Assembly (NCBI RefSeq): GCF_028368995.1
Contig: NZ_JAQNDL010000003.1
Coordinates: 64,001-128,000, forward strand
DNA from: Nannocystis bainbridge
GTDB taxonomy: Bacteria; Myxococcota_A; Polyangia; Nannocystales; Nannocystaceae
Length of the DNA stretch: 64,000 bases
Reading direction: 5' to 3'
Positions within the stretch are counted from its first letter, which is position 1. Each line of letters opens with the position of its first letter. Below the pieces are notes generated by a model that was not told where the DNA came from, made no database searches, and was given only the letters and a program-made list of their open reading frames with translations. Both the position numbers and the translations under genes were made by a program. Shown piece by piece: positions 1 through 39,508 of this stretch.

Positions 1-3000
1 GAGCAGCAGGAAATGCTCATCGTCGGCGAGCTGGATCAGGCACCCGCGGAACAGCGGGCCGCGCGACAGATCGAACGGCCGCCGCACCTCGCTCGCGAGC
101 CGGCGCTCGAGCTCGAGCGCGCGCAGCTCGGCCGGCAGGCTGCGCAGGTCGAAGCGGCGCAGCGGCACCGCCACGCGCTCGCCGATCACCTGCCGCGCCT
201 GGCCTGCGACCTCGACGAAGGTCGTGCGCAGCGACTCGTGGCGCTCGACCAGCGCATCGAGCCCGCGCTGCAGCGCCGCCGCGTCGAGCGACCCGCGCAG
301 GCGGAACCCGTGCGGGCAGTTGTAGGCCGTGCTGTCCGGCGCCAGGCGGTCGAGGAAGAACAGCCGCTCCTGCGCCAGCGACAGCGGCAGCGGCCCGTCC
401 CGCCGCGCCGGCGCGATCGGGCTCGGCTCGCTCGCCGGCGCCCGTCGGGCCCGCACCAGCCCCGCCAGCGCCGCCACCGTCGGCCCCGCGTAGAGCTGCG
501 CCAGTGACAGCTCGACCGCGAACGTCCGCCGCACCCGCGCCAGCACCTGCGTCGCCAGCAGCGAGTGTCCGCCGAGCGCGAAGAAATCGTCGTGCGCCCC
601 GACCCGCTCGACCTTCAACACGTCCTGCCAGATCGCCGCCAGCGACACCTCGAGCTCCGAGCGCGGCGGCACCGACGTGCTCGCCGTCGCGTCGTCCTCC
701 GGCCGCGGCAGCGCCCGCTTGTCGATCTTCCCGTTGGGCGTCAGCGGCATCGCCGGCAGCCCGACGAACGCCGTCGGGATCATCGCCTCCGTCAGCGACC
801 GGCGCAGGAACACCCGCAGCTCGGCCGCCACGTCGCAGGCCGCCTCGCCGTGGCTGGCCACGAAGTAGGCCACCAGCCGGCGCTCGCCCGGCGTGTCCTC
901 GCGGGCGACCACCACCGCCTCCTGCACCCGCGGGTGGCGGGAGATCGCCGACAGCACCTCGCCGAGCTCGACCCGGACCCCGCGGATCTTCACCTGGTCG
1001 TCGCGCCGGCCCAGGTAATCGATGGTGCCGTCGGGCCGCTGGCGGGTGATGTCGCCGGTGCGATAAAGGCGGGCGCCGGGCTCGCTGGCGAACGGGTCGG
1101 GCACGAACCGCTCGGCCGTCAGGTCGGGCCGGCCCCAGTAGCCGCGGGCCAGGCCCTCGCCGCCGAGGTACAGCTCGCCGGGCACGCCGACCGGGCACGG
1201 GTTCATGTGCGGGTCGAGCACGAACACCCGCGTATTGGCGATCGGCCGCCCGATCGGCGGGTGCGGCACCCACTGCGAGCGCGCTTCGGGCAGCGCGTAC
1301 GCGGTCACCACGTGCGTCTCCGCCGGCCCGTAGTGGTTGTGCAGCGTGCACCGCGGCAGCCGCTCGAACAGCGCGATCACGGGCGCGGTCAGGTGCATCT
1401 GCTCGCCCGACGTCGTCACCTCTCGCAGGCTGCGCAGCACCTCGGGCCGGTCGGCGAACTCCTCCGCCAGCTGCTGCAGCACCACCACCGGCAGGATGAC
1501 CTTCTCGAGCGCCTCGGCCTCGATCGTCGCCCCGAGCCGGGCCACGTCGTGGCGGACCGCCTCGTCGATCATGTGGACCGCGCCGCCGGTGCGCCACGCC
1601 GTGAACAGCTCGTAGAAGCACAGATCGAAGCCCAGCGCCGCGAACTGCAGCGTGCGCGCCCCGCCGAGCAGCGCCTCCGCGTGCCACTCGATCAGATTGA
1701 CCAGCGCCGCGTGCGGCATGCCGATCCCCTTCGGCCGGCCCGTCGAGCCCGACGTGTAGATCACGTAGGCCAGGTCGCCCGGGTCGGTGCGCGGCAGCGG
1801 CACCGGGCTGGCCTCGACCGCCACCTCGACCAGCACCGGCTGGGCCTGGCTCGGCGGCAGCGTGGCCGCCAGGTCGGCGCGCGTCACCATCGCCACCGCC
1901 CCGCTGTCGGCCACGATCCACGCCAGCCGCTCCGGCGGGTAGGCCGGGTCGAGCGGCACGTAGGTCCCGCCCGCCAGCAAGATCGCCAGCACCCCGACCG
2001 CCAGCTCGAGCGAGCGGTCGAGGAACAGCCCCACCGGCACGTCGGCGCCGACCCCCAGCCCGCGCAGGCGCCACGCCAGCCGGGTCGCGCGCGCCTGCAG
2101 CTCGCGGTACGTCAGGCTCTGGCCGCCGCACACCACCGCCGGCGCGTCGGGCGTGCGCGAGGCCTGGGCCGCGAACAGCCCCTGCAGGCAATCGGGCCCG
2201 AGGTAGGCCGCGCCGGTCGCGTTCCACGCGTGCACCACCGTCTGCAGCTCGGCCGGCACCAGCAGCGCCAGCGTGCTGACCGGCCGCGCCGGCTCGGCCA
2301 GCGCCGCCACCAGCACCATCTCCCAGTGACCGAGCAGCCGCGCCACCGTGTCGGGCTCGAACAGGTCGCGGTCGTACGCGGCCAGCAGCAGCCCCTCGCG
2401 CAGATCGATCGCCAGCTCGAGCTCGTGCGCGACGACCCCGAGGTCGAGCGCGACCCCCGACGGCTCGTCGCTGGCGCCGTGGAAATACACCTGGCACTCG
2501 GGCGCGCGAGTCGTCATCGCCGCCACCAGCGAGGCCAGCGCGCCGTGCTCCTGCGCCGTGGCGATCGCCGCCTGCGTGCGCGCCAGCAGCGAACCGAAGC
2601 CCTGCTCCGGCAGGACCGCGACGCGCAGCATCCAGCGGTCGGCCACCGGCCCCAGGCGCGGCTTCTCGCCCGCCTGGGCCGCGCGCGCCTCGACCACCAG
2701 CTCGGCCTGCCCGGTGTAGCGGTGCAGCACCGCCAGCAGGCCGGTCAGCGCGACCGTCTCGACCTCGACCCCGCCGCGGGAGGCCGCGGCCGTCAGCGCC
2801 GCCGGCACGTCGTCGCCGAGCCGCCGCGACGCCCTGGCCCCAGGACGGGCCGGCACCGGCGAGCGCGGGCGATCCACCGGCAGCTCGAGCAGCGCCGGCG
2901 CGCCGGCGTGCTGGGCTTGCCACCAGGCGATCGCGCTGCGGGTCTGCGGCGACTCCAGCGACTCGGCCTGGGCCCGCAGGTGCTGGGTATAACGCCCGGT

Positions 3001-3552
3001 CACCTGTCCGGGCATTGGACCGGACCCCTCCACCAGCATTCGCCATTCCTTAAGGAGGCACTCCGCGTCGCTGTCTGCATCGGCGAGCAGCGCGTGCACG
3101 ACCAATACTGCCAGGTGCCGATCGGCGCGCTGGCGGATCAGGCAGACTCGCCACGGCGGCTCGGCCTGCGGATCGAGCCCGCCGCGCGCCGCCTCGCCGG
3201 CGCGGCACAGCACCTCCTCCTCGCTCCAGTCGCCGCCCTCGACGCGGACCAGCCGCGGCGACGCGGCCGCGGCGATCACCTGCAGCAGCCGCGCTTCGCC
3301 GGTCTCCTGCGTCCCCTCGCAGAAGGTCGTCCGCAGCAGATCGTGGCGCTCCCCGAGCCGCAGCGTCGCCTGCTCGAGCCGCCCGACGTCGACCGCCCCG
3401 TCGACCCACGCCGCGGCGCAGCGGTGGTGGACCGGCGACGGCCCGAACAGCCCCAGACGCAGCCATACCAGCGCCTGCTCGCAAGAAGCAGCGATTGTGT
3501 AGCCGGCGACAGGACCCTCGCGGTGCGGCGGTCCGAGGTCGATCGAGTCCAC
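1..3552 (-). CDS. Non-ribosomal peptide synthetase, 5' part (degenerate C - A - PCP - C...), continues beyond left edge
   Basis: Manual translation antisense to ORFs 13..507 and 565..3702 gives A-domain motifs LAYVIYTSGSTGRPKG, HNHYGPAETHVV, LYRTGD, QVKIRGVRVELGE, PNGKIDK; PCP motif FFALGGHSLL; a second C domain start LSLAQERLFFL...RHESLRTTF...PFDLSRGPLFR. Start (GTG 3552) uncertain. Confidence 0.93.
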   Translation of the reverse strand, partial: MDSIDLGPPHREGPVAGYTIAASCEQALVWLRLGLFGPSPVHHRCAAAWVDGAVDVGRLEQATLRLGERHDLLRTTFCEGTQETGEARLLQVIAAAASPRLVRVEGGDWSEEEVLCRAGEAARGGLDPQAEPPWRVCLIRQRADRHLAVLVVHALLADADSDAECLLKEWRMLVEGSGPMPGQVTGRYTQHLRAQAESLESPQTRSAIAWWQAQHAGAPALLELPVDRPRSPVPARPGARASRRLGDDVPAALTAAASRGGVEVETVALTGLLAVLHRYTGQAELVVEARAAQAGEKPRLGPVADRWMLRVAVLPEQGFGSLLARTQAAIATAQEHGALASLVAAMTTRAPECQVYFHGASDEPSGVALDLGVVAHELELAIDLREGLLLAAYDRDLFEPDTVARLLGHWEMVLVAALAEPARPVSTLALLVPAELQTVVHAWNATGAAYLGPDCLQGLFAAQASRTPDAPAVVCGGQSLTYRELQARATRLAWRLRGLGVGADVPVGLFLDRSLELAVGVLAILLAGGTYVPLDPAYPPERLAWIVADSGAVAMVTRADLAATLPPSQAQPVLVEVAVEASPVPLPRTDPGDLAYVIYTSGSTGRPKGIGMPHAALVNLIEWHAEALLGGARTLQFAALGFDLCFYELFTAWRTGGAVHMIDEAVRHDVARLGATIEAEALEKVILPVVVLQQLAEEFADRPEVLRSLREVTTSGEQMHLTAPVIALFERLPRCTLHNHYGPAETHVVTAYALPEARSQWVPHPPIGRPIANTRVFVLDPHMNPCPVGVPGELYLGGEGLARGYWGRPDLTAERFVPDPFASEPGARLYRTGDITRQRPDGTIDYLGRRDDQVKIRGVRVELGEVLSAISRHPRVQEAVVVAREDTPGERRLVAYFVASHGEAACDVAAELRVFLRRSLTEAMIPTAFVGLPAMPLTPNGKIDKRALPRPEDDATASTSVPPRSELEVSLAAIWQDVLKVERVGAHDDFFALGGHSLLATQVLARVRRTFAVELSLAQLYAGPTVAALAGLVRARRAPASEPSPIAPARRDGPLPLSLAQERLFFLDRLAPDSTAYNCPHGFRLRGSLDAAALQRGLDALVERHESLRTTFVEVAGQARQVIGERVAVPLRRFDLRSLPAELRALELERRLASEVRRPFDLSRGPLFRGCLIQLADDEHFLLL

Positions 3553-5251
3553 TCCTGTGTATACATCCGAGCGACGAAGGTGCACATTTCCCCCTGGATG
3601 CGCGAACAGCACGCGCTGGAGCGATCTGCTCCCGTCCCGCGGATTCGCCTCGGCGCGGATACGTATCGCCGGGTGAATGTCCGTAGTCGTGGAGCCAAAT
3701 AAAAGGCGAAGTCCCGTGCAGCGGGTGTGAATAGATATACACCGCGCCACACCGCCGACTACCAGGAATTCTACTGAGCGGACAGATGTCCGCAAGTCAC
3801 CTCGCAAATGTCATTTGCCAGACTCACGAACTCGCGACGCAGTCCGGCGAACAAGCACTCTCGCGTCGGCGCCTCGGCGCGGCGAGGTCCGCGGAGATCT
3901 CTCTTGTGAATGACGTCGTGGAACAATTGCGGCTCCTGCAGTGAAACGCCCGCCGCGCGCCTCGCCCGGTCCGCAGCCGTTCGCCGGCCCTCGGCAGGAG
4001 CGGTCGGCATCGCGCATCCTTGGCTGTGCATCGGTGTGTCTCCACATTTCACGAGCGCTCGCGGACGCGGACGCTCTTCAGGCGAACGGTCGTCGACTGC
4101 TGCTTGCCGGGCCCCTGACCGGGCCGCCCGGCGCGACCTGACGGTGAACGAACGTCCCGGAGATCGCCGGGCGAAATCATGGCACCCCGCATCGAGGTGC
4201 CTGCAATCGATCGCGGCCGCGTGTTCGTCGCGGCTGGCGACGCGCGCGCGACGGGCCCGCGCCCCTGCGCGTGACCCGATCGCCAGCGCCCCGCGAATCT
4301 CCGCCAGGGCCCGCCGCCGAGCTCCGCTCGCGCCCGCGATCTCGCAGCCTCCCGCGAGCCGCACCGCCGACGGGCGCTCGCCGACCCGCCTCGCCGCAGG
4401 CTGGCACCTCGCGCCGAAAGCATGCCCCCGCGCGCCGCCGCGAGCGGACGCTGCAGCGCCCGGACCGTCGAGCCGCGGGTGCGAACACGGCGTGGCTCGA
4501 CCCTGCCGCGGAAGGCGCCCCGAATCACGCGCACGCCCCCGAGCCTTCGCCCGCGCGCCGCCCCGAGCCATTGATACGACACCGCGAGCGCGATTGTCAG
4601 CAGGACCGAATCGCGGCTCGCCCGCGTCCCTTCGACGATTCGACGCGATCGCCCGCTCGCGTCGAACATCGCCCAGGGTCGAGCCCTCGGAGACCCGCCC
4701 GAAAACAGTCGGCATCTTCCGACGGTACCCGCCGCGCCCGCGAATCGCAACCGGCGCAGCACCGGCGATCGCTCGTTCGCACCACCACGAGTTGCGGCCT
4801 GCAGACAGCACCTGTCGATTCACCCGCCATCCCGCTCGCGTGCGCCGCCCCGCGGCCGATTGGCCGCATGTCTCAAAGGACATCCCGATCGCCGCCCAGG
4901 GCGGCCGGCGGCATGCTTCGCGCGAATCACGGCGGGGTCATCCGCCCGGCCGCCTCGTCGGCGCCTGCTCGTCGCGCATCACCCTGAGGGTCGGCAACGC
5001 CTGCCTCGACGGCGCGCAGCGGCTGCGTCTCCGGCGAGGCACGCAAGTGCCGGCACGCCGCTCGCCCGCGCATCGCTGCGACCAGACCTCACCAGCGCCG
5101 GCTCCGCGAACCCCACCGTTTGCCCCGAGCACCGCTCGGCGAACCCCGGGTGACAGGAGGCCCGCGTCACACCTCTTCGCAATCACCGGTGCATCCGGCC
5201 CCCATCCTTGCGCTGCTCACATTGCCTGCCGCTCGCGCGCACCGGCCGGGA

Positions 5252-5971
5252 TCACGCCCGGCGCTCGGCGATGTGAATCGCCGACGTCACGCTCTGCGCC
5301 ACCGTCTCCTGCAGCAGCGCCGAGAACATCGTGTACGCCGCCTTTTGCCCGTAGTAGAGCCCGACCGCCCGGCGCTCGTCGATGCGGAAGCCGTGGCGCC
5401 ACGCGACCGCCCCGGTGTCGGCGCGACGGATCTCCACGTCCAGCTCCCCGGCGAACGAGAGGAAGCTGAACGGCACCCCGATCACCGCCAGCAGCCCCAG
5501 CGGCACCGCGTTGCTGTGCACGCGCATCTCGGTGCGGCGGATCGCCCCGTCGATCACGAACGTCGCCTCGCCGCCGGCGCGACAGCGTTCGGGCGAGGCC
5601 GTGACTTCAATGGCCCAGTCGGGCCGCGCCTCGCGGATCGTCGCCGCCAGCAGGTCCGGCAGCGCCGTGCGCAGGTCACCCGCGCGCACCAGCGGCCGCC
5701 CGTTCTTGCTGCCCACGAAGCCGCCGCGGTCGACCTGATGGAACGTGTGCCCCATATAGAAGAGATTGGGCCCGGGGATCAGGCCGACCGGCGAGGTCGT
5801 CGTCAGCACATCGCCGCGGAGGTCGTCGAAGCGGCACACCAGCAGCGACACCGGCGGCCCCACGGCCTCGGGCAGCGCGGGCAAGCGCACGGGCGCCTCG
5901 TGCAGCGACGCGAGGTGAGTGCTACAGCCCGCCGCCAGCAGCGACGCGACCACGAGTCCGCGTGAGAGCAT
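5252..5971 (-). CDS. Putative lipoprotein
   Basis: Lipobox-type N-terminus MLSRGLVVASLLAAGC; normal codon bias. Confidence 0.7.
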   Translation of the reverse strand: MLSRGLVVASLLAAGCSTHLASLHEAPVRLPALPEAVGPPVSLLVCRFDDLRGDVLTTTSPVGLIPGPNLFYMGHTFHQVDRGGFVGSKNGRPLVRAGDLRTALPDLLAATIREARPDWAIEVTASPERCRAGGEATFVIDGAIRRTEMRVHSNAVPLGLLAVIGVPFSFLSFAGELDVEIRRADTGAVAWRHGFRIDERRAVGLYYGQKAAYTMFSALLQETVAQSVTSAIHIAERRA

Positions 5972-6126
5972 GCGGCCTTGAACCCGAAGGACCGGCGCCT
6001 ATTCCCGCGTCGGTCGCTGCTTCCGACGCGCTCGATCGCCCGCGCCGGGCCTGACCCGGGAAGACCCCCTGTTCTCGCAGGGATCGCCGGGCCTGCGATC
6101 GGCCCTCGCTTCACCGCTCCTGGGCT

Positions 6127-6335
6127 CGATCCTCCATCCCTGATGATTCGGCCGGCGAGCGGCCCTGCTCACAATCCTCCATCGCAGCCCCATCGCACGG
6201 CCCGTACTGCGATTGAACGCCCATGATTCGCCGCTCGTGGCTGCGATCCTCCATCCCTCATGACTCGCCCTGCGATCGGTCCTATCCAAAATCCTCCATC
6301 GCGGCATTCTTCGAACGGCCGGTAGTGCGATTGAA
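6127..6335. repeat. Two degenerate ~90-bp direct repeats (117-bp period) containing 4x ATCCTCCATC
   Basis: cgatcctccatccct at 6127 and 6244; aatcctccatcgc at 6173 and 6290; tgcgattgaa at 6208 and 6326. Confidence 0.8.
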
Positions 6336-6561
6336 GAATGCACCCATCTGCACGGCACCCTGTTCATTGCCGACACCGCTCCACTCCGCGCCCCGCGGCC
6401 CGCGCGATGACCCTACGTCAGCAGCATTCGAGGTCCGGTTCGCACGCCGCTCGCGCACGTCGGTCCGGTCACGCACCGCGCAAGTCTTGCTGGCACCGAC
6501 CCCTGGTCGCGCGAATCGCCGATGATAGAGTCCGGTCCATCGATTGGCGATCGACCGGAGA

Positions 6562-7347
6562 ATGGCCGTGACGGAGCCCATACGCGCATTGCGCCCCCGA
6601 ACCACCGAACTGCTGCGCGGCGACCTGCGTGACGTGAGCCTCGTCTCATTGTTGCAACTGGCCCAGGTCGAGGCGATCAGCGGCTGGCTGCGCATCGAGG
6701 GCCGCGGCGAGATTACCTTGCTCAAAGGTCATGTCGGCCTCGTCGCCTGCGGCCGCCTGAGCGGCGTCGAGGCCCTGCGCGAGCTCGCCTTCCACGACCG
6801 GGGCCGCTTCGTGCTCGCCCGCGGCGAGCCGGCCGGCGATCGCTGCGGCGACAACGTCACCTTCGCCCTGATGGACGCCTACCGCCTGCGCGACGAGTGG
6901 AAGCGGCTCGCCGACGCCGTCCTGCGGCGCGTCGGCGAGCGCCCGTGGAAGCCCACCGGCGGCCCCTTCGACCCGATCGTGCTCGAACTCGACGGTCGCC
7001 GCACCCTCGCCGAGCTCGTCGATCCCAACCCCGGCATCGCCACTCTGGTGATCGACGCCGCCCTCGACGCCCTGCGCCTCGGCGCCATCGAGCGCGTGCC
7101 CGAGGCCCAGCGGCGCCCGCCCCCGCTCACCGTGATCGACGGCAGCGACGCCGGCGACCCCGAAGACCCCGACGATTTGCTCGACCGCGGCCGCGATCTC
7201 GCGCGCCGCGGTGATTACGACGGCGCCGAGGCGCTGCTGCGCCGGGCCCTGGCCCGTCGGCCCGACGACCGCATCGCCCAACAGAACTTACGGGCCCTCG
7301 CCCGGCGCCGCGCCGCGCCCGGGCCCGAAACAGAGGACATCCGATGA
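6562..7347 (+). CDS. DUF4388 (PatA-N-like) domain protein with C-terminal TPR
   Basis: LRGDLRDVSLVSLLQLAQVEAISGWLRI matches the DUF4388 start; C-terminal TPR-like GRDLARRGDYDGAEALLRRALARRPDD. Start ATG 6562 or GTG 6568 (GGAG upstream). Confidence 0.8.
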   Translation: MAVTEPIRALRPRTTELLRGDLRDVSLVSLLQLAQVEAISGWLRIEGRGEITLLKGHVGLVACGRLSGVEALRELAFHDRGRFVLARGEPAGDRCGDNVTFALMDAYRLRDEWKRLADAVLRRVGERPWKPTGGPFDPIVLELDGRRTLAELVDPNPGIATLVIDAALDALRLGAIERVPEAQRRPPPLTVIDGSDAGDPEDPDDLLDRGRDLARRGDYDGAEALLRRALARRPDDRIAQQNLRALARRRAAPGPETEDIR

Positions 7348-7712
7348 CTCGCTCCGAACAGATAAGCAAGCTGCTGCGCAACCTCTCCACCACCACCCCC
7401 GACATCGAGGCCGCTGCCGTGGTCGACAACGACGGCCTCCTGATCGCCTCGGCCCTGCCCGCCGACGTCGAGGACGACCGGGTCGCGGCCATGAGCGCCG
7501 CCCTCCTCGGCATGAGCGAGCGGATCGTCCGCGAGCTGGCGCGCGGCGACTTCTCGCTGGTCATGGTCCGCGGCACCCAGGGCTTCGTGATCCTGGCCCG
7601 CACCGGCGCCGACGCGGTGCTCACCGTGCTCGCCACCGAGGCCGCCAAGCTCGGCCTCGTGTTCCTCGACATCTCGCGCGCGGCGAAGGAGATCGGCCGC
7701 CTCCTCGGATAG
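7344..7712 (+). CDS. Roadblock/LC7 (MglB-like) protein
   Basis: PDIEAAAVVDNDGLLIASALP...RVAAMSAALLG...VMVRGTQGFVIL...KLGLVFLDI; ATGA overlap with upstream gene. Confidence 0.92.
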   Translation: MTRSEQISKLLRNLSTTTPDIEAAAVVDNDGLLIASALPADVEDDRVAAMSAALLGMSERIVRELARGDFSLVMVRGTQGFVILARTGADAVLTVLATEAAKLGLVFLDISRAAKEIGRLLG

Positions 7713-7716
7713 ACCC

Positions 7717-8127
7717 ATGCTCGGCGTCGAGGCCCAGCTCACCGCGCTCCTGGGCGGCATGAACCGCGGCGGCGGCTACCCGCTGTCGCTCGTGTGCACC
7801 GCCCAGGGCCTGCTCGTCGCCGCCGCCGGCGAGCACGCGCGCAGCGACGTCGCCGCCGGGCTCACCAGCCTGTTCGACGACATCGTCCAGCGCGCCGTCC
7901 GCGACCTCGGCCTCGTCGACGTCGACGAGCTCACCCTCGCCGCGCCCGACGCCGGTCGTGTCGTCATTCGCCCGCTCGCGCGCGACTGCGTGCCGCGGCT
8001 GTTCCTGGTCGTCTTCGTCCCCGGCGGCCGCACCTGGCGGCGCCACACCAATCACATCACCCGCAAGCTGCTGGCATTGCTGAGCCCCTGGCTCACCCGC
8101 GCCGCCGCCCCGCAAGAGCCCCCATGA
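7717..8127 (+). CDS. Second, divergent roadblock/LC7-like protein
   Basis: SLVCTAQGLLVAAAG...VAAGLTSLFDDI pattern, 136 aa, tightly coupled in operon. Confidence 0.65.
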   Translation: MLGVEAQLTALLGGMNRGGGYPLSLVCTAQGLLVAAAGEHARSDVAAGLTSLFDDIVQRAVRDLGLVDVDELTLAAPDAGRVVIRPLARDCVPRLFLVVFVPGGRTWRRHTNHITRKLLALLSPWLTRAAAPQEPP

Positions 8128-8663
8128 CCGACGCGTCCGCCATCTACGCCGCGATCCAACAATTCATCGGCTTCGACGCCGACGACGCCGCCCGCCTGCG
8201 CGAACTGGCCCCCCTGTTCGCCGAGCACGGCTCTACCCTCACCGACCGCTTCTACGCCAAGCTGGCCGCCGACCCCGAGCAATCCGCGCTCATCGCCGGC
8301 CGCGTCGAGTCGCTGCGGCAGACCCACATGCGCTGGCTCTCCGAGCTGTTCGCCGGCGACTACGGCGAGCGCTACTTCGACGATCGCTGGCGGATCGGCC
8401 TCGCCCACGTGCGCGTCGGCGTGCGCCCGTGGTGGGTCGAGGCCGTCACCAGCTTCCTGCGCAGCGAAGGCCTCGCGCTGATCGAAGCCCACGTCGCCGA
8501 CCCCGAGCGCCGCGCCGCCTCGGCGCGCAGCCTGCTGAAGATCCTCGACCTCGACCTGATGATCATCAACCTCGCCTACGCCGACGACCGCGTCGACCGC
8601 CTGTGCCGCTTCACCGGCATGAGCCGCAAGCTGATCGAGCGCTGCATCGCCCAGGGCCGCTGA
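8124..8663 (+). CDS. Stand-alone protoglobin / sensor-globin domain protein
   Basis: FIGFDADDAARL...LTDRFYAKL...LRQTHMRWLSELFAGDYGERY...RIGLAHVRVGV (proximal His)...KILDLDLMII; ATG 8124 overlaps upstream stop. Confidence 0.88.
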   Translation: MTDASAIYAAIQQFIGFDADDAARLRELAPLFAEHGSTLTDRFYAKLAADPEQSALIAGRVESLRQTHMRWLSELFAGDYGERYFDDRWRIGLAHVRVGVRPWWVEAVTSFLRSEGLALIEAHVADPERRAASARSLLKILDLDLMIINLAYADDRVDRLCRFTGMSRKLIERCIAQGR

Positions 8664-8734
8664 TCGCCCGGCGACCCGAGCAGCGCCCGCGGGAGCCTCA
8701 CGCGGCTCGCACGCCGCTCGGCGTGCGCAGCACG

Positions 8735-8766
8735 CATGTCTTTTCGGACATGTCGTAACAGACATC
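8735..8766. repeat. 14-bp palindrome array (TGTC-N6-GACA x2)
   Basis: tgtcttttcggaca|tgtcgtaacagaca at 8737-8764; a weaker pair at 8919-8946. Confidence 0.7.
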
Positions 8767-9090
8767 CTCGATCGCTGCCGCGTGAGCCGCGCGACGGGTC
8801 CGCTGCCCTCCGCGACGAGGACGCTCGCGACGCACGACCTCACGAACGCCGCGGGCGCCAGCCGCTCCGCGCCGGGTCTCACCCGGCTTGCGGAGCGCCC
8901 TGGCGCCCACGGCATGGCTGCACTTCAGGACATGTACTTCGGAGCAGGACTCTGGGTCGACACCGGAGCTGCTCGAGGGGCGAGGTTCGGCGCAGCCGGC
9001 GAGGCCGGTGCAGCCGTCGTGCGGCGCCCGTCGAGGCGCCGCGGGGCCGGTCCGCGCTGGCAGGGGGCTGGCCCTGGGCGCGGCGGTCGC

Positions 9091-9312
9091 TCAGCTCGTG
9101 TGCGCCGAAGCCGACGCCGACACCGCAGCGGCCTGTCCGCCGCGACGCGGCCACTCGAGGCCGAGCTTGACGATCCGCCGCTTGAGCGCGTGGCGGGTGA
9201 TGCCGAGCAGAGACGCCGCGCCGACGATGTTACCGGCGGTGGTGAGCGCCTCGTTGCAGAGGCGGCGTTCGGCGTTCTCGAGATTGAAGTCTTCCAAAAT
9301 CAGCTGTGGCAA
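9091..9312 (-). CDS. Small Fis-family helix-turn-helix protein
   Basis: NLENAERRLCNEALTTAGNIVGAASLLGITRHALKRRIVKLGL is an HTH_8 pattern; GGAG upstream. Confidence 0.82.
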   Translation of the reverse strand: MPQLILEDFNLENAERRLCNEALTTAGNIVGAASLLGITRHALKRRIVKLGLEWPRRGGQAAAVSASASAHTS

Positions 9313-9939
9313 GGTCCGTACTCCGTGTGACGATGTGTATATCGCAACGGAGTGTTCTCGCGCGGATCAAGCGGAGGCGCGGCGGCAACTCACGATCCCT
9401 CCTGCCCCGCATCCACGGCCCCTCGCGCCGCCTCCTCGCCCGCGAGGCCCCGTCCGCGAGCGGCCGCCCAGGGGGCCCTCCACGGCCTCTCAGGCCGACT
9501 TCGCGAAGATTCATCGCCGCGCTCGCGGGTCCGATCGCCGTCGCCGGTGGGCCGCGAGATCGGTCGAGTCCTGCACCCACGAACTATGACGACACGCGCG
9601 ATTCTGAGCGACGCCATTCTGCGGTGATGTCGGCCTCGCCAAGATCCACGAGCGGCGCGCTGCTGCGTTCGCGGCGGCTCGGCGAGAGCCGCGACGAATG
9701 TGCCACCCGACCCCACGCGTGGGTCCCCATCGCTCGCCGCCGCAGCGACCCGCGGCCGCGTCTCGGCGTTCGCAGGCGGCCCGCGATTGCCCACCCGTGC
9801 CCTGGCGTCCACCGCTGCCGCGGCGCGGGCCGGCGTGACGCCCTCGGCGGCCAGGCCGGCGGCGGGAGCGTCGGGATCGGGAGCGTGTCGGCCCGGATCT
9901 TCCGTGTCACGCGCGCCGGGGCTGCCTCGTCTCGGCCGC

Positions 9940-10665
9940 ATGCCCACCGCCACCGACCCCTCCCGTGACGCTGCGCGCGAGCGCGCGCTGATCCGCGTCC
10001 AGGCTGCCAGCGGGGCCCTGTTCGCCGTCTTCCTCGTGGCCCACCTCGTCAATCAGATGTTCGCCGCCGCCGGCCCGGCCGTGTACGACGCGATGCAGAT
10101 CCGGCTGCGCGCCGCCTACCACGCGCCGGCGATCGAGATCGCCTGCGTGCTCGTCCCGCTCGCGGTCCACGTCGTCGCCAGCGTGTGGCGCATGGTGCGT
10201 CGCCGCCGTCGCGGCGGCCCTGCAGCCGCCGCGCCGCGCATGCGATGGCAGCGACGCACCGCGATCGTCCTGCTGAGCTTCACCCTCGGTCACATCATCG
10301 CCACCCGCGGCCCCTCGCTGGTCTACGGCGTCTACCCCGAGTTCTCCGGCGTCGCCTACACCATGGTATGGCTCCCCGCCTATTTCATCCCCTATTATTT
10401 GTTGTTCTCGCTCGCCGGCCTCTATCACGCGCTGAACGGCCTGGCCCTCGGGCTGCCACGAATCGGCCTCGCCGGCCCGCCCGCGCTGCGCTCCGGCCGG
10501 GCCGTCGCCCTCGCCTGGCTGGCCGGCGCGGTCGCCCTGGCGCTCGGCATCGCCGGATTCGCCGGCGCATGGCACGACTTCCGCGAGCAGGCCGTCACCA
10601 GCCCCTATGCACAATTGCTGAGCGACCTCGGCGTCGCCGACAGCCCCCACGATTCGCACCCCTGA
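9940..10665 (+). CDS. Polytopic membrane protein with intramembrane His residues (DUF1691 / cytochrome b-like)
   Basis: VQAASGALFAVFLVAHLVN, LAVHVVAS, LGHIIATR, GLYHALNGL in hydrophobic helices. Confidence 0.65.
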   Translation: MPTATDPSRDAARERALIRVQAASGALFAVFLVAHLVNQMFAAAGPAVYDAMQIRLRAAYHAPAIEIACVLVPLAVHVVASVWRMVRRRRRGGPAAAAPRMRWQRRTAIVLLSFTLGHIIATRGPSLVYGVYPEFSGVAYTMVWLPAYFIPYYLLFSLAGLYHALNGLALGLPRIGLAGPPALRSGRAVALAWLAGAVALALGIAGFAGAWHDFREQAVTSPYAQLLSDLGVADSPHDSHP

Positions 10666-10873
10666 TGCGTGTCCCTCTCGTCGCCGACCGTCAAGTCGAC
10701 CGCGCCCGCGCATCGCTCGAACGCGATCTCGCCATGACTGCCCTCGCCGCCATGGCCGCGACGATGAACTCGATCTGAGGCCTCATCACCCCGACGAGGC
10801 CCGCGTCCTCATCATCGTGGCCACCTTCGCGTTCATCGGCCCGCCTCGCCACGCGATGCGGTACGCTCGCGCG

Positions 10874-12043
10874 ATGCCCAGGACGAGCATCGCGGCCGTG
10901 AGCACGCCTGTGAAGCTGGCAGCGTTCTTGTGCGGCGCGCAGCTCGGCTGCAGCCCAGCCCCGGCGCCGGAGGTCGAGCGCGAAGCCCCGGCCGCCCCTG
11001 CTCCGCCCGCCGCGACCGCGGCACCGCCGAGCGCGACCCCACCCGCCGAGCCGCCGGCGAAGCCCGCGCTCGATGCTGCCGCGCAGGCCGTCACGTGCGC
11101 CCCGGAGGTGCCCGCGGACGCGACGCTGGTGGACCGCCTCGAGCTCTTCCGTTCGGTCTGCGGCGGCGTGCTGCTGGCCTCCCGCGAGGACGGCCTGCAC
11201 GCCTTGACGCCCACGCTCGAGCCCATCGTGCGCATCCTCGACAAGCGCGTGCGATGGCTGCAGGCGCGGCGCGACGGTGAGGCGCGCGAGCTCTACTATT
11301 TCCCCGCCGACGCGCCAGACCTCGTGCACCTCGACCTCCGCACCGGCCGTGAGGAGGTGCTCGTAAGCTTGCCGCGCCTGAAGCATCGGTGCTTCACCGG
11401 CGCCGAACCCGGCCAGCCGTCATCTCCCGCCGACCCCGTGGATTTCATCCAATCCACCGACCGCCTCGACCTCGACCTCGCGGCCGGCGTGCTTTGCCTC
11501 GACATCGGCGATCGCAACGAGAACATGGCCTCCATCGGCCTCAACCTCCGCGCCGATCTACGCACCCGCAAGGTCGAGCAACGGACCGTTTTCGTCACCG
11601 AGGATTGCCAGAAGGGCGCCGGTCGCGAGCGAGAGCCTGCCTGTCGCCCGGCGCGAAGCGACCTCCCGTCCCCCACGGAGATCGCAGGCTCCGATCGCTC
11701 GGGCCTGGCCTCGCCCTCGGGCCACTGGTCCTATTACTCCGACGAGGACTTCGGGGCCTCCGGCGATTACATGTACAGCGCCGCGTTCTTGTTCGACACC
11801 CGCTCCAGGACCGCCTACGCGGTGACCCCGACGGCCCTCGTGAAGTTCACGCCCGGCACGCCCGACGCCCCGCAGCGCCCCCCGGAGACCACCTGCCTCA
11901 TCCCCGCCGAAGCCCAGGCCCGCTGGATGCCCGGCCGCGACCTCCTGATCCTCGAGGGCTGCGGCGAAGCGGGCCTGCTGATCGTCGAGCCGCCAGGGCG
12001 CGTACAAAAGGCGCAGGCGCACGCCGTCATCCCCTACCCGTGA
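10874..12043 (+). CDS. Hypothetical lipoprotein / exported protein
   Basis: Signal-like LAAFLCGAQLGC then Pro/Ala linker; good codon bias. Start uncertain. Confidence 0.65.
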   Translation: MPRTSIAAVSTPVKLAAFLCGAQLGCSPAPAPEVEREAPAAPAPPAATAAPPSATPPAEPPAKPALDAAAQAVTCAPEVPADATLVDRLELFRSVCGGVLLASREDGLHALTPTLEPIVRILDKRVRWLQARRDGEARELYYFPADAPDLVHLDLRTGREEVLVSLPRLKHRCFTGAEPGQPSSPADPVDFIQSTDRLDLDLAAGVLCLDIGDRNENMASIGLNLRADLRTRKVEQRTVFVTEDCQKGAGREREPACRPARSDLPSPTEIAGSDRSGLASPSGHWSYYSDEDFGASGDYMYSAAFLFDTRSRTAYAVTPTALVKFTPGTPDAPQRPPETTCLIPAEAQARWMPGRDLLILEGCGEAGLLIVEPPGRVQKAQAHAVIPYP

Positions 12044-21128: not shown

Positions 21129-23276
<2,148 letters not shown>

Positions 23277-23295
23277 AGCCCGAGGACTCAAGACC

Positions 23296-24021
23296 ATGCC
23301 TACCACTACACACGAACCTTCGGGTCTCATCGCCATCCGCGCCCTCGTCGACCTGGAGCGCGAGCGCCAGGACCGCGAGCAGGCCGCCGCAGCCGCCCGC
23401 GAGGCCGCCGAGGCCGCTGCCCGCGAGGTCGCCGAGGCCCGCGCCCGCGCCGAAGCCGAGGCCCTGGCCCTGGCCGCCGCCGAGGCCCGGCGCCGCGACG
23501 AGCGCCGGCTGCACGAGGAGCGACTGCGCGCCGCCGAGGTCGAGGGCCGGCTGCGGGCCGGCCAGGCGGCTCACCTGGCGCAGGTGCAGGCCGAGCTCGA
23601 CGCCCGGACCGGCCCCGCGCGCCCGGCCAGCGCCGTCGGCCTGTGGACCGCCGGCGCCCTCGGCCTCGTCGGCCTCGGCCTCGCGGTGCTGCTGAAGACC
23701 GCCACCGCCGCGCCCGCGCCCGCGCTCGCGCCGGTGGCCGCCGCCGAGGACACCTCGCTCCGCGACGCCCGCCAGGCGATCGCCGAGCTCCGGGCCGGCA
23801 TCGCCGACATCGAGCGCAGCAACGAGGCCGACCGCCAGGCCCTCGCCAACGCCACCGCCCGCGCCGCGGCCTCCGTCGTCGCCCCCGCGGCCGCACCCGC
23901 GCCGACGCGCCCGCGCCCGAGCGCCCGCCCGACCGCCAGGCCGGGCGACAAGCCCCCAGTCGCCAAGCCCGGCGGGCTCAAGATCTGCGACACCAACGAC
24001 CCGCTGGCCGAGGACTGCTGA
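23296..24021 (+). CDS. Hypothetical coiled-coil membrane protein with C-terminal CDxNDPL motif
   Basis: Ala/Glu/Arg coiled coil, TM LWTAGALGLVGLGLAVLL, Pro-rich linker, ends KICDTNDPLAEDC. Confidence 0.75.
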   Translation: MPTTTHEPSGLIAIRALVDLERERQDREQAAAAAREAAEAAAREVAEARARAEAEALALAAAEARRRDERRLHEERLRAAEVEGRLRAGQAAHLAQVQAELDARTGPARPASAVGLWTAGALGLVGLGLAVLLKTATAAPAPALAPVAAAEDTSLRDARQAIAELRAGIADIERSNEADRQALANATARAAASVVAPAAAPAPTRPRPSARPTARPGDKPPVAKPGGLKICDTNDPLAEDC

Positions 24022-27443: not shown

Positions 27444-28289
27444 ATGCAGAACAAGACACACCACCACCGCGAGCACCGCCACGGACACAAGGGCCGGCGA
27501 GATCTGGGCGAGACGCGCGGGCTGCTGGCGCGGGCCGTCGATCGCGTGCGCGCGTGGTTGGGCGACGAGGACGCCTCCGGCCGGCTGAAGCTCGACGCCC
27601 GGCGCAGTCGTCGTGACGCGCGGATCCAGGCCCGGGCCGAGCGGCGGGAGCACATGCGCCAGGAGATCGAGGAGCGGCGGCGCAGCGCCAAGCGGCATCA
27701 TCGCGAGCGCATGGCCGGCGCGCCCCCCCTGAGCTTCATCCCGTCGCCGCAGACCTGGCCGTGGCAGTTCATGGGACGCGGCGCCCCGTGGCCGCCGAAC
27801 CCCGAGTCGTACTACCAACAATCGCTGCCGCCCGGCGTGCGCGGCCGGCCGCTGCAGCGTCGCGGCCGCTTCACCGGCCGCGGCCCTCGCGGCTATGTCC
27901 GCCCGGACGCGCGGATCGTCGAGGACATCAACGAGGCTCTGACGTACAGCCCGCACATCGACGCCAGTGACATCGTCGTCCGCGTCGACAGCGGCGACGT
28001 CGTCCTCTCGGGCAGCGTCGACGATCGCTACATCAAGCGCCTGGTCGAGGAGCTGATCGAAGACGTCGCGGGTGTGCGCGACGTGCAGAACGACCTGCAC
28101 GTCGAGACCCGCGATCTGCAGGGCGCCGGCGGTATGCACCGCAGCTCGGCCCGCCGCGACGACAGGGGCGCGCAGCGGCGCGACATGACCGTGGGCCAGG
28201 ACTTCGAGGACCTCGAGACCAGCAACCTCAACACCGGCCAGGAGAGCTGCGCCCGCAAGCACCGCGGCGGCAGCTTCTCCGGCACCTGA
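27444..28289 (+). CDS. BON domain protein
   Basis: GRGPRGYVRPDARIVEDINEAL...IDASDIVVRVDSGDVVLSGSV...GVRDVQNDL; GGAGG RBS. Confidence 0.88.
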   Translation: MQNKTHHHREHRHGHKGRRDLGETRGLLARAVDRVRAWLGDEDASGRLKLDARRSRRDARIQARAERREHMRQEIEERRRSAKRHHRERMAGAPPLSFIPSPQTWPWQFMGRGAPWPPNPESYYQQSLPPGVRGRPLQRRGRFTGRGPRGYVRPDARIVEDINEALTYSPHIDASDIVVRVDSGDVVLSGSVDDRYIKRLVEELIEDVAGVRDVQNDLHVETRDLQGAGGMHRSSARRDDRGAQRRDMTVGQDFEDLETSNLNTGQESCARKHRGGSFSGT

Positions 28290-28311
28290 GCAGCGCGAGC
28301 GACGGCCCGCG

Positions 28312-29107
28312 CGGCGACGTGGTACTTGTCGAAGGCGATCTTCGCGTCGCCATCGGGGATGGCCTCGCGGACAGCTTGAATGTAGGGCTCGTGCATGTCC
28401 ATGACGACCACCGAGACCGCAGCCCTCTCTGGGCGCGAAAAGCCGCTCAGGAAGCCCTTGAGGGCCCCTTTGCCGCGTCCGTCGGCGACGTGGATGACCC
28501 GCTTGCTGGCGGACTTCGGGTCATGCACGATCGTGACGTACTCGTGGCGCCGCTGGAAGGAGGTCTCGTCGACGGCGAGCATCGCCGGCAGCGCGACCTC
28601 GCGGCGCTCGAGTCCACATTGTACTGCACGCTCCTGGACGCCGGCGACCTGATCCCACGAGAGGCCGAGGCGCTCCGCGACCACTGCGATCGGCGCCTCG
28701 CGGAGCCAGTCGATCACCAGCGCCTCGAACAGCGCGGTGAGCCGGGCGCTACCGTCCGCCCAAGAGACGCGCATCGTCAGCGTACCGTGCTTCGGGCACG
28801 ACGTCCGCGGTACGCCGGCTTCGATGATCGTCCGATACTGACACGTATCGAGGTGCCGCCATCGACGAGTCCGTGTATCGTGACGGGGAACAGCCTGGTC
28901 ACACTCCGGGCACCTCGTCGGCACATCGGAGTCGTGCTCGACCTCGATGACGATCTGCCCCTGCCCGAGCTGCAGCTTCACCGCAGCAACACGCCAGGGA
29001 GCCTCGATACCGAGAATGCGGGCATAGAGTTCGGTCTCTGCCATTCGCGCACGGTATCACGGCGCGATTTCGCGCGCAACCCACGCCACCCTCAACCCTG
29101 AAGAGCC
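28312..29107 (-). mobile_element. ISL3-family IS, 3'-truncated (left end plus N-terminal ~245 aa of transposase, start 29044)
   Basis: CPEC...RRWRHLDTCQYRTIIEAGVPRTSCPKHG, AVDETSFQRRHEY, VMDM, AFDKYHV then homology stops; end GGCTCTTC at 29107 next to AT-rich TAATTTCT. Confidence 0.9.
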
Positions 29108-34141: not shown

Positions 34142-37100
34142 TCAGGCGGCAGCGGGGCCGCGCTTCTTGGCGCCGATGAGCTGCATGGCGAAGGCGATGC
34201 CGCTCTGCAGGGTGCCGTGCGTGGCGATGCCGCGGAGGTCGATGCCGAGGTCGACGAACAGGGAGGCCGTATCCGGGCTGACGCCGGTCAGCACCGTGCG
34301 CGCGCCGAGCAGGCGGAGCGCCGAGCCGGCCTGGATCAGCGTGATCGCGCCGCCGCTGTCGATCCCCTTCATGCCGGTGACGTCGAAGATGACGACGCGC
34401 ATGCGCCCGGCCTCCGCGCCCTGCAGGGCCGTCTGCAGCAGGTGATCGCAGCGGGTCGCGTCGAGCGTGCCGATCAGCGGCATGACGACGATCGCGTCGG
34501 TGATCGGGATCATCGGCGTCGAGAGCTCGGTGAGCATCGCCTGCTGCATGCGGATCATCTCCTCTTGCAGCGCCGCGCGGGCCTCCTCCGCCCGCTCTCG
34601 CTCGATCAGCTCCGCGGACAGGCGCTCGTTCGCGGCCTGCAGGGCGGTGGTGCGTTGCTCGACGTCGGACTCGAGGCGCTCGTTCGCGCGGGCGAGCGCG
34701 TTGCCGGCCTCGACGACGTGGCGGTACAGCAGGGCGTTCTCGACGGCGGTCACCGCCTGGGCGCACAGCACCTGCAGCAGCTCGACGCGGTTGCGGCTGA
34801 AGGCGTCGCGGATCAGGTGGTTCTCGACGACCAGGATGCCGCTCATGCGCCGGCGGTGCGCCAGCGCGAGGCACAGCACCGACTTGACCTGCCTCGCCAC
34901 GAGCGCGGGGTCGGCGGCGAATCGGGGGTCGCGCGCGACGTCGCCGAGCACGACCGCCTCGTGGGTGCGGGCGACGTATTGGACCAGGCTCGCCGGGACG
35001 TCGGGGCGGGCGGCGAGCGGCGTGCTGCTGACGAACTCGACCACCTCGGTGTCGATCGACGCTGCCGCCGCCAGCTCGAGCGTACCGTCGCGGTCGAGCA
35101 GCAGATATACGCGCGTGCCGCCCGCGTTCTGCATCACGATCCGCATCAGCCGATCGAGCAGCTTGTCGAGCTCGATCTCGCCGACGAGCGCCTGCCCGAG
35201 CCGCACGACGGTCGCCAGATCGAGGGCCGCGGCCGCGCCGAGGCCGACGGCGCCGCCATCGTCCGGCGTGGTCGTGCGCACCGGACCGGTGACCGCGGGC
35301 GCCGTCGTCGGCTGGGGAAAGTCGCGGGCGATCAGGGCCGCCTTCGCAGGAGCGCCCCAGCGCACGAACCCGTCGTACGCCGCGCGCATGTACACCGGGG
35401 CGATGAACGACCGTTGGCGGTCGCGGTAGAACTCGCCGCACAGCGCGCTCGCCAGCGCCTCGTACTGCACGAACCCGTTGCGCCGCGCCGACGCGATCGC
35501 CTGGTCGTAGAGCTCCTCGGCCTCGAGCGCTCGACCCGTGACGCGCGCCTCCTCGGCCCGCACGAGCAGGTACTTGTGCTCGAAGTTCTCGGGGCAATTG
35601 TCGGCCCAGCGCGCCAGCTTGTCGATGTCGTCGCGCAGCACTGCGCGGTCGGCCAGCGCCTGCGCGGCGTCGACGTCGCCGACGCGCGCGCACAGGGCCA
35701 GCGCCTCGTAGACGTGGAAGGTCGCCTCGATCGGCATTGCCATGACTGCGCCGAGCACCTCGCGCGCCGAAGCGGCGGCGGCGAGCGCCTCCTCGTGGCG
35801 TCCGTAGGTGTAGAGGAGCATCAGGCGGATGATGTGATAGAAGGCGATGCCGCAGCCGAAGCTCGCGGCGGTCACCTGCGCCAGGCACTCCTGGGCGTCG
35901 AAGTCGTCGCTGTCGAGCAGCGTGCCGGGGCGGACCCGGCCGGCGAGGCTGTCGAGGAATTGCTGCTGCAGGCGGATGGTCTGATACACCGCCTCGTTCT
36001 TGCTCTCGCGCGCGAACGCGGCGAACCGCTCCGACGCGCGGCGCGCCTCGCTCAGCGGGCTCCCCACCTCGATGTGCTGCCATACCGTCTCGAACGCGAG
36101 GAACGAGGCGTACACGAGGTCACCGGCGGAGATGCAGGCGTGGAAGGCCTGCTCGAGGATCGGGAAGTCGGTGCGCAGCGGGCTGCGCCAGAAGTTGATG
36201 TGGTCGCCGTGGAGGTGCAGCAGCGTGCCGCGCAGCTTGGCGTCGCCGAGCCGCTCGTTGAGCTGGATCGACATCTCCGAGAACGCGTAGCCGTTGGCGA
36301 CGTCGCCGAACACGCTGACGAGCATGAAGCCGTACACGCTGTAGGCGAAGCACGAGTCCTCAGCGTTGCCGTGGCGCAGCGAGAGGTTGACGGCCGTGAG
36401 CCCGAAGTACGGGAACACCTTCGGCCGGCCGATGTACGCGCACGGCATGATGCCGACCATCAATCCGAGGACGGCCCGGTGCGCCGGATCGGTCATCAGC
36501 GGCGCGTCGAGCAGCGTGGGCACCGGGCGCCCGGCGAGGTTGCCGGCGACCGCCGCGGCCTCGGCGGCCATCGCCGCCTGCAGCGCGGCGTCGTCGGCCG
36601 GGAGCTCGACGCCGAACAGCGCCAGCCCGCGCACGCCGAGCTCGACGCCGGCGTCGTAGCGGCCCGCGACCTGATAGAGGCGCATCTGTAGGATGTAGAC
36701 ATTCGCGTGGTCGACGCGATCGCGGGCGCGGGTGTGAATCCGGTCGAACAGCTCCTCCGCGCGCTCGAACGCGCCGGCGAGGTACTCACATTCGGCCAGC
36801 TCGCAGTGCAGCGCGTAGACGTGGGCGTAGTCGTCGTCCCACGCGGCCTCGGGCAGCAGCGCGACGCCGGCGCGCAGGTACTGGGCCGCCGCCGCGTAGG
36901 CGGTCGATTTCTTGGCGTGGCGGCCGACCGCGAGGTTCAGCGCCGACACCCGTCGCCGCTCGTCGGCGTCCAGCATCAGCTCGATGCCGAGGTCGAGGTG
37001 ATCGACGACGTCGAACAGCTCGTCAGGGCGCGGCTCGCCGCCGAGTCGCGCCAGCAGCAGCCGCCCGATCCGCAGGTGGGTCTCGGCGCGCTGCTCGGCG

Positions 37101-39202: not shown

Positions 39203-39508
39203 GCCCCGCCCGCTCTTTGTGGGCTGCGACCGAGATCGCGCCAGCAGCGAAGAACTCAATGTATTGACAATGCGACCCTACTCGGGATCCTCAGGCCGAG
39301 TCAAGCCTCCGCGCTCGGGACTTCTCCGATGTAGAGATCGGCTCCGCGCGCGACCCGCCCCCGCTGGCGAGCGACGGGGGTGTAGGTGATTTGTCACCGG
39401 CGAGTGTACACCCCGTGTCGCTACAAACATCGGCGGAGGTGAACACATCCGCGTTTGCACGCGAGCCCGGACCAGCAATCCCGATAAATCGCCGCGTGGC
39501 TGCACGAC

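Follow-up and report, generated by a model that had tools for sequence, protein, structure and literature searches.

A translationally coupled PATAN-roadblock-globin operon

We analysed a 64,000-nucleotide stretch of the Nannocystis bainbridge genome (contig NZ_JAQNDL010000003.1, positions 64,001 to 128,000, forward strand; hereafter the window, G+C content 71%), which carries four adjacent open reading frames (ORFs) encoding a PATAN-TPR protein, a Roadblock/LC7 protein, a second protein with a predicted, divergent roadblock fold, and a stand-alone globin of the sensor family. The genes and the signals that flank them are as follows.

6480-6547, + strand: conserved upstream block, from the palindrome GCAAGTCTTGC at 6480-6490 through further invariant stretches up to CATCGATTGG at 6538-6547
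6562-7347, + strand, gene call: ORF1, PATAN (DUF4388)-TPR protein
7344-7712, + strand, gene call: ORF2 (Robl2), Roadblock/LC7 protein, 122 aa
7717-8127, + strand, gene call: ORF3 (Robl3), predicted divergent roadblock fold, 136 aa
8124-8663, + strand, gene call: ORF4, stand-alone sensor-family globin, 179 aa
8721-8745, + strand: terminator-like hairpin (stem-loop 8721-8735) with a T-rich tail, 58 nt past the globin stop

ORF1 to ORF4 form one translationally coupled operon. The sequence agrees with a preliminary description of the locus as four tightly coupled genes: start and stop codons overlap as ATGA between ORF1 and ORF2 (7344-7347) and between ORF3 and ORF4 (8124-8127), and 4 bases (7713-7716) separate ORF2 from ORF3. 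Comparison with Nannocystis orthologues indicates purifying selection on all four genes, with ratios of nonsynonymous to synonymous substitution rates (dN/dS) of 0.06-0.44, and ORF2 is the most constrained of them (0.06-0.14). The true start of ORF1 is likely GTG 6568 and not ATG 6562, because the GTG is invariant in an alignment of six Nannocystis-type sequences (6/6, vs. 2/6 for the ATG); a GGAG at 6557-6560 precedes these start codons. Between the window and five Nannocystis loci (L001-L005), the block at 6480-6547 is invariant and the DNA further upstream is unalignable, which marks the block as a candidate promoter or operator of the operon. At the other end, the operon likely closes with the hairpin at 8721-8745; a terminator consensus scan of 5900-9500, a pattern match only, returned 2 sites vs. 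0.5 expected. An Rfam scan of 5800-9400 gave no match at E ≤ 0.1.

The preliminary description also named the products as a DUF4388-TPR protein, two roadblocks and a protoglobin. Profile searches bear this out for ORF1, ORF2 and ORF4, while ORF3 has no Pfam match and was recognised as a roadblock through its fold model and profile-profile alignment. In ORF1, the DUF4388/PatA_N domain (PF14332) spans residues 19-114 and covers the full model, 1-122 (E 9.7e-9; 35.7 bits vs. a cut-off of 25), and TPR_14 matches residues 204-242 (24.0 bits vs. a cut-off of 23.5). In a family alignment of 26 sequences, a middle domain comes after PATAN, and a variable linker joins it to a TPR hairpin at the C-terminus, in which the motif P..QNL is invariant. 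Its AlphaFold model has a predicted local distance difference test score (pLDDT) of 88.8. A whole-chain fold search against the PDB returned 0 matches at E ≤ 0.001; the TPR hairpin alone finds local matches, the PATAN fold having no solved relative there. Atlas neighbours of ORF1 fall in clusters named PatA_N+TPR, with PatA_N in 80-100% of members.

ORF2 is a Robl_LC7 protein (PF03259; E 1.7e-19, 69.7 bits vs. a cut-off of 23). Its sequence matches in the PDB are a Thorarchaeota roadblock (7f8m, 3.5e-24), CvnB5 of an actinobacterial conservon (3leq, 3.8e-10) and MglB (6h5b, 1e-3). It is 95-97.5% identical across Nannocystis loci, and mean column identity over 25 sequences is 76%. ORF3 has no Pfam match at E ≤ 1, no NCBIfam match (including the MglB model NF052242) and no PDB sequence match. 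Its AlphaFold model (pLDDT 89.6) has 116 Foldseek matches in the PDB at E ≤ 0.001. The best of these are the Thermus and Myxococcus MglB structures 1j3w/6hjm, with template modelling (TM) scores of 0.72-0.78, followed by conservon-type (CvnB-like), Asgard, p14/MP1 and Ragulator roadblocks (TM 0.6-0.79 and 18-20% identity to the p14/MP1 and Ragulator chains). The ORF3 family aligns with the ORF2 family by hhalign (83%, E 8.7e-6), and one Verrucomicrobial member passes Robl_LC7 itself (24.9 bits vs. a cut-off of 23). On these three grounds ORF3 is predicted to be a divergent roadblock with an MglB-like fold, in the alpha-beta-beta-alpha-beta-beta-beta-alpha order of solved roadblock proteins. 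Its C-terminal helix is conserved in the family alignment, with W107 nearly invariant and R108 invariant. ORF2 and ORF3 may form a heterodimer.

ORF4 matches Protoglobin (PF11563) over residues 10-155 (E 8e-30, 104.4 bits vs. a cut-off of 25). A profile of its family (18 relatives) finds the globin domain of the Geobacter sulfurreducens globin-coupled sensor (GCS) in the PDB (2w31, 8e-34), along with those of the Anaeromyxobacter globin-coupled kinase AfGcHK (5ohe), Tlr1989 (8h17) and HemAT (1or4), and His95 aligns with the haem-ligating His of all four. By sequence, ORF4 belongs to the sensor (S) lineage and is expected to bind haem: Tyr44 is present in 39/39 globins of the related loci described below and the proximal His95 in 36/39, at positions known as B10 (distal Tyr) and F8 (proximal His) (PMC4476040). 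The three globins without His95 are the second, very divergent paralogue found in Verrucomicrobial loci (L027 9336-9920, L030 4630-5214 and L029 11064-11648), in which the His is replaced by L or K and the Tyr is kept; in L029 a hemerythrin gene (10626-11042) lies between the two globins.

The globin lacks an output domain, as the preliminary description had claimed. Its 179 aa hold, according to Pfam, the globin and a 25-residue tail with nothing after it, which rules out a GCS in the strict sense. Within that tail and beyond the Pfam match, the 12-residue stretch FTGMSRKLIERC (163-174) is invariant at 10/12 positions in an alignment of 18 sequences. By analogy it is a candidate docking element, since the same position in a fused sensor leads into the output domain. 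The subfamily appears to be stand-alone as a rule, because its members are nearly all about as long as ORF4: close relatives are all ~175-195 aa, and nearly all of the best 31 cluster representatives in an exhaustive profile search fall within 158-190 aa. A word-based search for longer globins returned 2 distant kinases and missed the fusions that the exhaustive search recovered.

Conserved linkage, MglA-bearing relatives and natural fusions

A genome scan seeded with the globin alignment recovered 33 loci from 27 assemblies (cited below by L numbers), belonging to Nannocystaceae, related Polyangia and Myxococcota metagenome-assembled genomes (MAGs), and two Verrucomicrobiota MAGs that hold three loci (L027, L029 and L030). 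Partner genes were sought in six-frame translations with profiles of each module protein, and by tblastn. Robl2 lies beside the globin in 27/33 loci, PATAN in 25/33 and Robl3 in 23/33, and 31 of the 33 loci hold at least one of the three; the two loci without a partner, L028 and L032, have a contig end on one side. The gene arrangement is far from chance, because 31 of 33 loci found through the globin alone keep a partner gene. A globin that was not conserved together with the roadblocks had been named beforehand as the result that would count against a functional module, and these counts are the opposite. The linkage is kept through about ten gene orders, including the following.

PATAN-Robl2-Robl3-globin: window, L001-L007, L015, L017, L022
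Robl2-Robl3-globin, without a PATAN match directly upstream: second copy in L010
PATAN-Robl3-globin: L008
PATAN(x2)-Robl2-globin or Robl2-globin: L009-L012, L014, L018, L026
PATAN-PATAN-globin: L020
globin-PATAN: L016
Robl3-Robl2-globin plus a second globin: L029, L030
Robl2-globin'-globin, no Robl3 match: L027

The outer flanks differ between clades (zinc peptidase, Mur ligase, P450, sulfate permease, non-ribosomal peptide synthetase (NRPS)), several assemblies carry two copies of the module, and the Robl2 and globin trees recover the same subclades. The gene products of the window are 81-97% identical to those in loci of Nannocystis exedens, N. pusilla, N. punicea, N. radixulma and Nannocystis sp. 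RBIL2, the window globin nests within the Nannocystis clade of the globin tree, and the NRPS gene upstream of the operon is synteny common to the window and the Nannocystis loci. Five loci come from records titled Alphaproteobacteria, Enterobacteriaceae or Pseudomonadota (L013, L019, L023, L031, L033); they have 71-74% G+C and genes that group with Myxococcota, and the MAG labels look wrong.

In seven of the 33 loci (L013, L019, L021, L023, L024, L031 and L033), an MglA-family gene is encoded directly upstream of or beside the PATAN gene, as the first gene of the cluster. Its product matches Myxococcus xanthus MglA (5ymx) with E 1.8e-53 and keeps the P-loop GPGLSGKT, RTLFFD, the family-specific TVPGQ and NKRD. 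These clusters run in the order mglA-PATAN-(Robl2)-Robl3-HhH protein-(HU-like protein)...globin(-Robl2), and L031 and L033 add a Pro-rich protein, the L031 copy of which has a hydrophobic stretch at its C-terminus. In the globin tree, a single clade (support 99/98) unites the 22 globins whose loci lack mglA, and rooting on the divergent second globin places the mglA-linked globins below this clade. A Robl2 tree with fusion proteins outside broadly agrees with the globin tree on this split. We hold only loosely to the view, suggested by these trees, that the ancestral cluster had mglA and lost it from the locus toward Nannocystis, because the root is set by long branches.

Fused relatives offer a further view of the same partners. 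We scanned with Pfam 25 of the best 150 matches of the exhaustive profile search, including all six shorter than 500 aa whose globin starts after residue 130. Four of them (P0293, P0308, P0333 and P0383; 289-359 aa) carry an N-terminal Robl_LC7 and a C-terminal Protoglobin domain. Their roadblock is of the ORF2 type, with 36-41% identity in three and 29% in P0383; the Robl2 profile matches it at 1e-23 to 1e-34 and the Robl3 profile weakly or not at all. The fusion globins keep the Tyr and the His.

A proposed split globin sensor and its alternatives

PATAN-associated MglA/MglB neighbourhoods were reportedly described by Makarova et al. in 2006, going by passages that cite that work. The roadblock protein MglB regulates MglA, MglA:MglB systems with a 1:2 composition are known, some MglA/MglB genes have a PATAN gene nearby, and a 2014-15 survey counted 328 orphan MglB homologues without a GTPase, none of them characterised at that time (PMC4316618). 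The neighbourhoods of Wuichet and Sogaard-Andersen (2015) thus resemble the present clusters in placing PATAN near MglA/MglB homologues and in including orphan MglBs; the words "globin" and "heme" occur 0 times in the main text of PMC4316618. The type IV pilus motor is a target of PATAN proteins, and social motility requires one of them, SgnC (bioRxiv 10.1101/2021.06.11.447907). Sensor single-domain globins (SSDgbs) are a recognised class, and the part of PMC7475203 covered here describes no signalling partner for them. The nearest published precedent is HGbRL of Methylacidiphilum infernorum (2015), a haem globin fused to Roadblock/LC7 for which the authors proposed that the globin, when moved by its ligand, passes this movement on to the roadblock; it was reported as unique to one genus and assigned no function, and the same genome holds a separate MglB-MglA-like gene pair elsewhere (PMC4476040). 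Among the matches listed by literature searches, pairing globin with roadblock returned the HGbRL paper and one paper citing it, and pairing globin with MglA returned HGbRL as the sole relevant item. We found no description of a protoglobin-type globin in a roadblock/PATAN/MglA cluster, in a search with supplementary tables and subscription journals outside its reach. The earlier claim that a link from O2 or NO to polarity is undescribed therefore holds in part: no account of this module was found, but the relay idea was published with HGbRL in 2015 and PATAN-MglA-MglB neighbourhoods were already known. We read the operon as a roadblock/PATAN/MglA signalling module, of a kind already known, to which a haem-globin input would be the new addition.

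Each of the known systems shares some of these parts. The M. xanthus MglA/MglB(/MglC) system likewise brings roadblock-fold proteins together with an MglA-family GTPase, with two paralogues, MglB and MglC, that cooperate; the ORF3 model best matches MglB, and the mglA paralogue of the relatives has the TVPGQ hallmark, Thr78 being the hallmark residue of MglA (PMC3000849). Unlike that system, the window has no mglA, ORF2 and ORF3 are by sequence not MglB orthologues, the operon adds a haem globin and a PATAN-TPR protein, and no RomR/RomX-type genes were seen here. HGbRL also joins a haem globin to a roadblock domain, but its globin is flavohaemoglobin-like (38% identical to HGbI) and not of the protoglobin sensor type, and it is one polypeptide with the globin ahead of the roadblock, without PATAN or a second roadblock (PMC4476040). 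HGbRL is an independent globin-Roadblock fusion of another globin lineage. The window module is ruled out as a fusion of that type, its globin and roadblock being separate genes, and its fused relatives run from roadblock to globin. ORF4 is of the same globin lineage as the GCS and SSDgb proteins GsGCS, AfGcHK and HemAT, with the proximal His and Tyr44 aligned; a GCS has a covalent output (methyl-accepting chemotaxis protein, kinase or cyclase), whereas the presumed output of the ~180-aa ORF4 lies in separate roadblocks. With the actinobacterial conservon (CvnA-D) the operon shares a four-gene signalling layout with a roadblock, ORF2 being the protein that matches CvnB5. It lacks the CvnA-type kinase, DUF742 (CvnC) and the CvnD GTPase and has PATAN and the globin instead. 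The conservon analogy of the preliminary description is rejected, since the roadblock is the sole CvnA-D component found and no kinase, DUF742 or GTPase domain occurs in or beside the operon. In Ragulator/LAMTOR (MP1-p14), two different roadblocks form a small-GTPase platform, which recalls the presumed ORF2/ORF3 heterodimer, and the ORF3 model matches its chains; the resemblance is in fold only, and there is no Rag-type GTPase.

We consider it somewhat better than an even call that the operon encodes a globin-coupled sensor that is split and non-covalent, with a roadblock pair as its output and an MglA-family GTPase as the switch which this pair regulates. Co-conservation, the mglA paralogue in cis in seven relatives, the roadblock-globin fusions, Tyr44 and His95, the congruent trees, the operon signals and the published context all point this way. 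In the proposed scheme, whose protein contacts, direction of signalling, target in Nannocystis and physiological output we infer, the globin would respond to the ligand (O2, NO or CO) or redox state of its haem, and would then act on Robl2, with the FTGMSRKLIERC tail as a candidate contact. Robl2 is chosen as the partner on the model of the fusions, where such globins are joined to its type. It would work with Robl3 as a heterodimer, or the two as separate dimers in the manner of MglB and MglC, and the pair would determine which nucleotide state an MglA-family GTPase adopts or where it localises. The PATAN-TPR protein, of a type usually found next to MglA/MglB genes and tied to the control of type IV pili and gliding, would be an adaptor toward the motility machinery. 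The output would be cell polarity, motility or another GTPase output. In deep-branching relatives the GTPase would be the mglA product encoded in cis as the first gene; the Nannocystis locus holds none, and there the module would act on a GTPase from another part of the genome or, if there is none, on a substitute target.

A more specific and more daring version is doubtful, if still worth entertaining: that this is the first direct gas input to a bacterial Ras-like polarity switch, running in Nannocystis from the globin tail through a roadblock heterocomplex to the GTP state of the housekeeping motility MglA in trans. If true, it would amount to aerotaxis-like control of gliding reversals without a chemoreceptor, and would give SSDgbs their first identified kind of signalling partner.

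Several observations weigh against a GTPase output, most directly for the window itself. The preliminary description stated that no P-loop GTPase gene is adjacent, and this extends to the whole 64 kb: an MglA profile found no match in the six-frame translation, and Pfam found no small-GTPase domain among 48 candidate window ORFs. No mglA lies within 10 kb in 26/33 loci. The genomic link to an MglA-type GTPase is real in relatives, through the seven clusters with an mglA paralogue, and is missing from the window and the 26 loci without one. For Nannocystis we infer the GTPase step purely, as the 64 kb hold no GTPase gene, and the ancestral-mglA view depends on a root set by long branches. An MglA profile search with 8000 matches had no Nannocystis name in the best 120; few matches are named, and the result is uninformative either way. 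The mglA-linked clusters also contain proteins with no place in the scheme: a helix-hairpin-helix (HhH; HHH_5) protein of ~280-390 aa in every one (listed for L013, L019, L021, L023, L024, L025, L031 and L033) and an HU-like (Bac_DNA_binding) protein of ~190 aa in at least four (L013, L023, L024 and L033). ORF2 scores below the threshold of the MglB equivalog model NF052242 (14.4 bits vs. a cut-off of 200) and is nearer in sequence to archaeal and conservon roadblocks than to MglB. Finally, other outputs are suggested by signalling proteins that occur beside the module or joined to its globin: a hybrid PAS histidine kinase (L008 10599-14438), response regulators with an uncharacterised C-terminal half (L011 8025-9215, L014 2787-4034, L018 7909-9198), an EAL protein (L023 11001-12023) and Ser/Thr kinase genes at Verrucomicrobial modules (L027 10665-11981, L030 6854-8329). 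The last, present at two of the three Verrucomicrobial loci, are matched by a fifth fusion among the 25 scanned proteins, P0246 (483 aa), in which a Ser/Thr kinase is joined to a globin very close to the ORF4 family (E 1e-57). This suggests a second kind of output for the same globin.

These points feed the strongest competitor, which we rate clearly below the split sensor with a GTPase output and as a minority view: that the Nannocystis module lost its GTPase and that the roadblock pair and the PATAN-TPR protein hand the haem signal directly to another target, such as a type IV pilus motor ATPase, a protein kinase or a two-component system. Beyond the missing mglA, the GTPase-less form appears stable and duplicated, since the 22 mglA-less globins form one supported clade and several assemblies carry two copies; some copies have response regulators, a hybrid kinase or Ser/Thr kinases next to them, a kinase-globin fusion exists, and PATAN domains of Synechocystis bind the pilus motor (bioRxiv 10.1101/2021.06.11.447907). 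However, the experimentally established partners of bacterial roadblocks, as given in PMC4316618, are small GTPases only (MglB-MglA, conservon), relatives hold an mglA paralogue in the same cluster, and the neighbouring kinases and regulators vary and are not kept across the family.

The remaining alternatives draw on the globin itself or on common descent. Single-domain globins often serve as enzymes or ligand buffers, and ORF4 could be one (NO detoxification, O2 delivery or storage) that the roadblock and PATAN proteins localise or regulate; its lack of an output domain and the hemerythrin and second globin of Verrucomicrobial loci fit this. We regard it as improbable, given that ORF4 is of the sensor lineage and that the solved structures nearest to it are those of sensor domains (from a GCS, a globin-coupled kinase and HemAT). 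The gene neighbourhoods show no conserved reductase or other redox partner for the globin, and the conserved C-terminal tail and the roadblock and kinase fusions are signalling-type architectures. Haem-less sensor globins also exist (PMC4476040), and a globin-fold scaffold without haem, as in the N-terminal domain of B. subtilis RsbR, would let the module sense something other than gas, as the loss of the proximal His in three divergent Verrucomicrobial second paralogues might suggest. This is very unlikely for the window globin, which like 36/39 locus globins keeps the proximal His in the motif of haem-bound structures, with Tyr44 present in 39/39. Shared ancestry accounts for part of the conservation, since a single family (Nannocystaceae and relatives) supplies most of the loci, but that the genes are neighbours by descent alone, with no functional link, is barely credible: the linkage survives many rearrangements, duplication within genomes and a phylum jump to Verrucomicrobiota, conservation does not extend to the outer flanks, reading frames overlap at their start and stop codons, and roadblock and globin are fused in four proteins.

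With the split sensor and its roadblock output as the working reading, the question of how sensor globins without an output domain signal becomes testable, the proposed answer being separately encoded roadblock proteins with the fusions as a guide. The same holds for the environmental inputs to MglA-type GTPase switches and for the role of the hundreds of orphan MglB-like roadblock proteins. Biochemical work can draw on a natural series within the family (with mglA in cis, without mglA, roadblock fused to globin, kinase fused to globin), and the four-gene form is carried by the cultivable N. exedens, N. pusilla, N. punicea and N. radixulma.

Surrounding features of the window and related loci

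A sacsin-like protein (~1400-1760 aa) adjoins the globin in L006, L009, L010, L011 and L018, at about 10.6-15.9 kb in each locus. The copy in L011, the sole one scanned, matches PADLOC TmtA of the Tiamat defence system (E 1e-120). This neighbour is probably clade-specific synteny outside the module. A reading of the operon as a defence system was rejected, as PADLOC has no match for the four module proteins and the sacsin-like/TmtA neighbour looks like unrelated synteny.

Other annotated features of the window are as follows.

1-3810, - strand: NRPS module (C-A-PCP), running off the window end
21132-23570, - strand: Ser/Thr kinase with TPRs
28031-29056, - strand: ISL3 transposase
34145-39277, - strand: kinase-AAA-GAF-STAS protein, 1711 aa
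55513-56235, - strand: DDE transposase fragment

At 9094-9366 on the - strand, convergent to the operon, is a small ORF (≤91 aa) that encodes a Fis-type HTH_8 motif. L001, L004 and L005 also have small ORFs of about this size downstream of the module, but these did not cluster with the one in the window. Upstream of the operon, the intergenic DNA at 6102-6335 consists of a 117-nt unit in two tandem copies that are 78-88% identical. Each unit holds GATCCTCCATCCCT, of which the 64 kb contain 2 exact copies, both here, and the 14-nt core of the repeat is local, with 2 exact copies and 1 distant two-mismatch site in the 64 kb.

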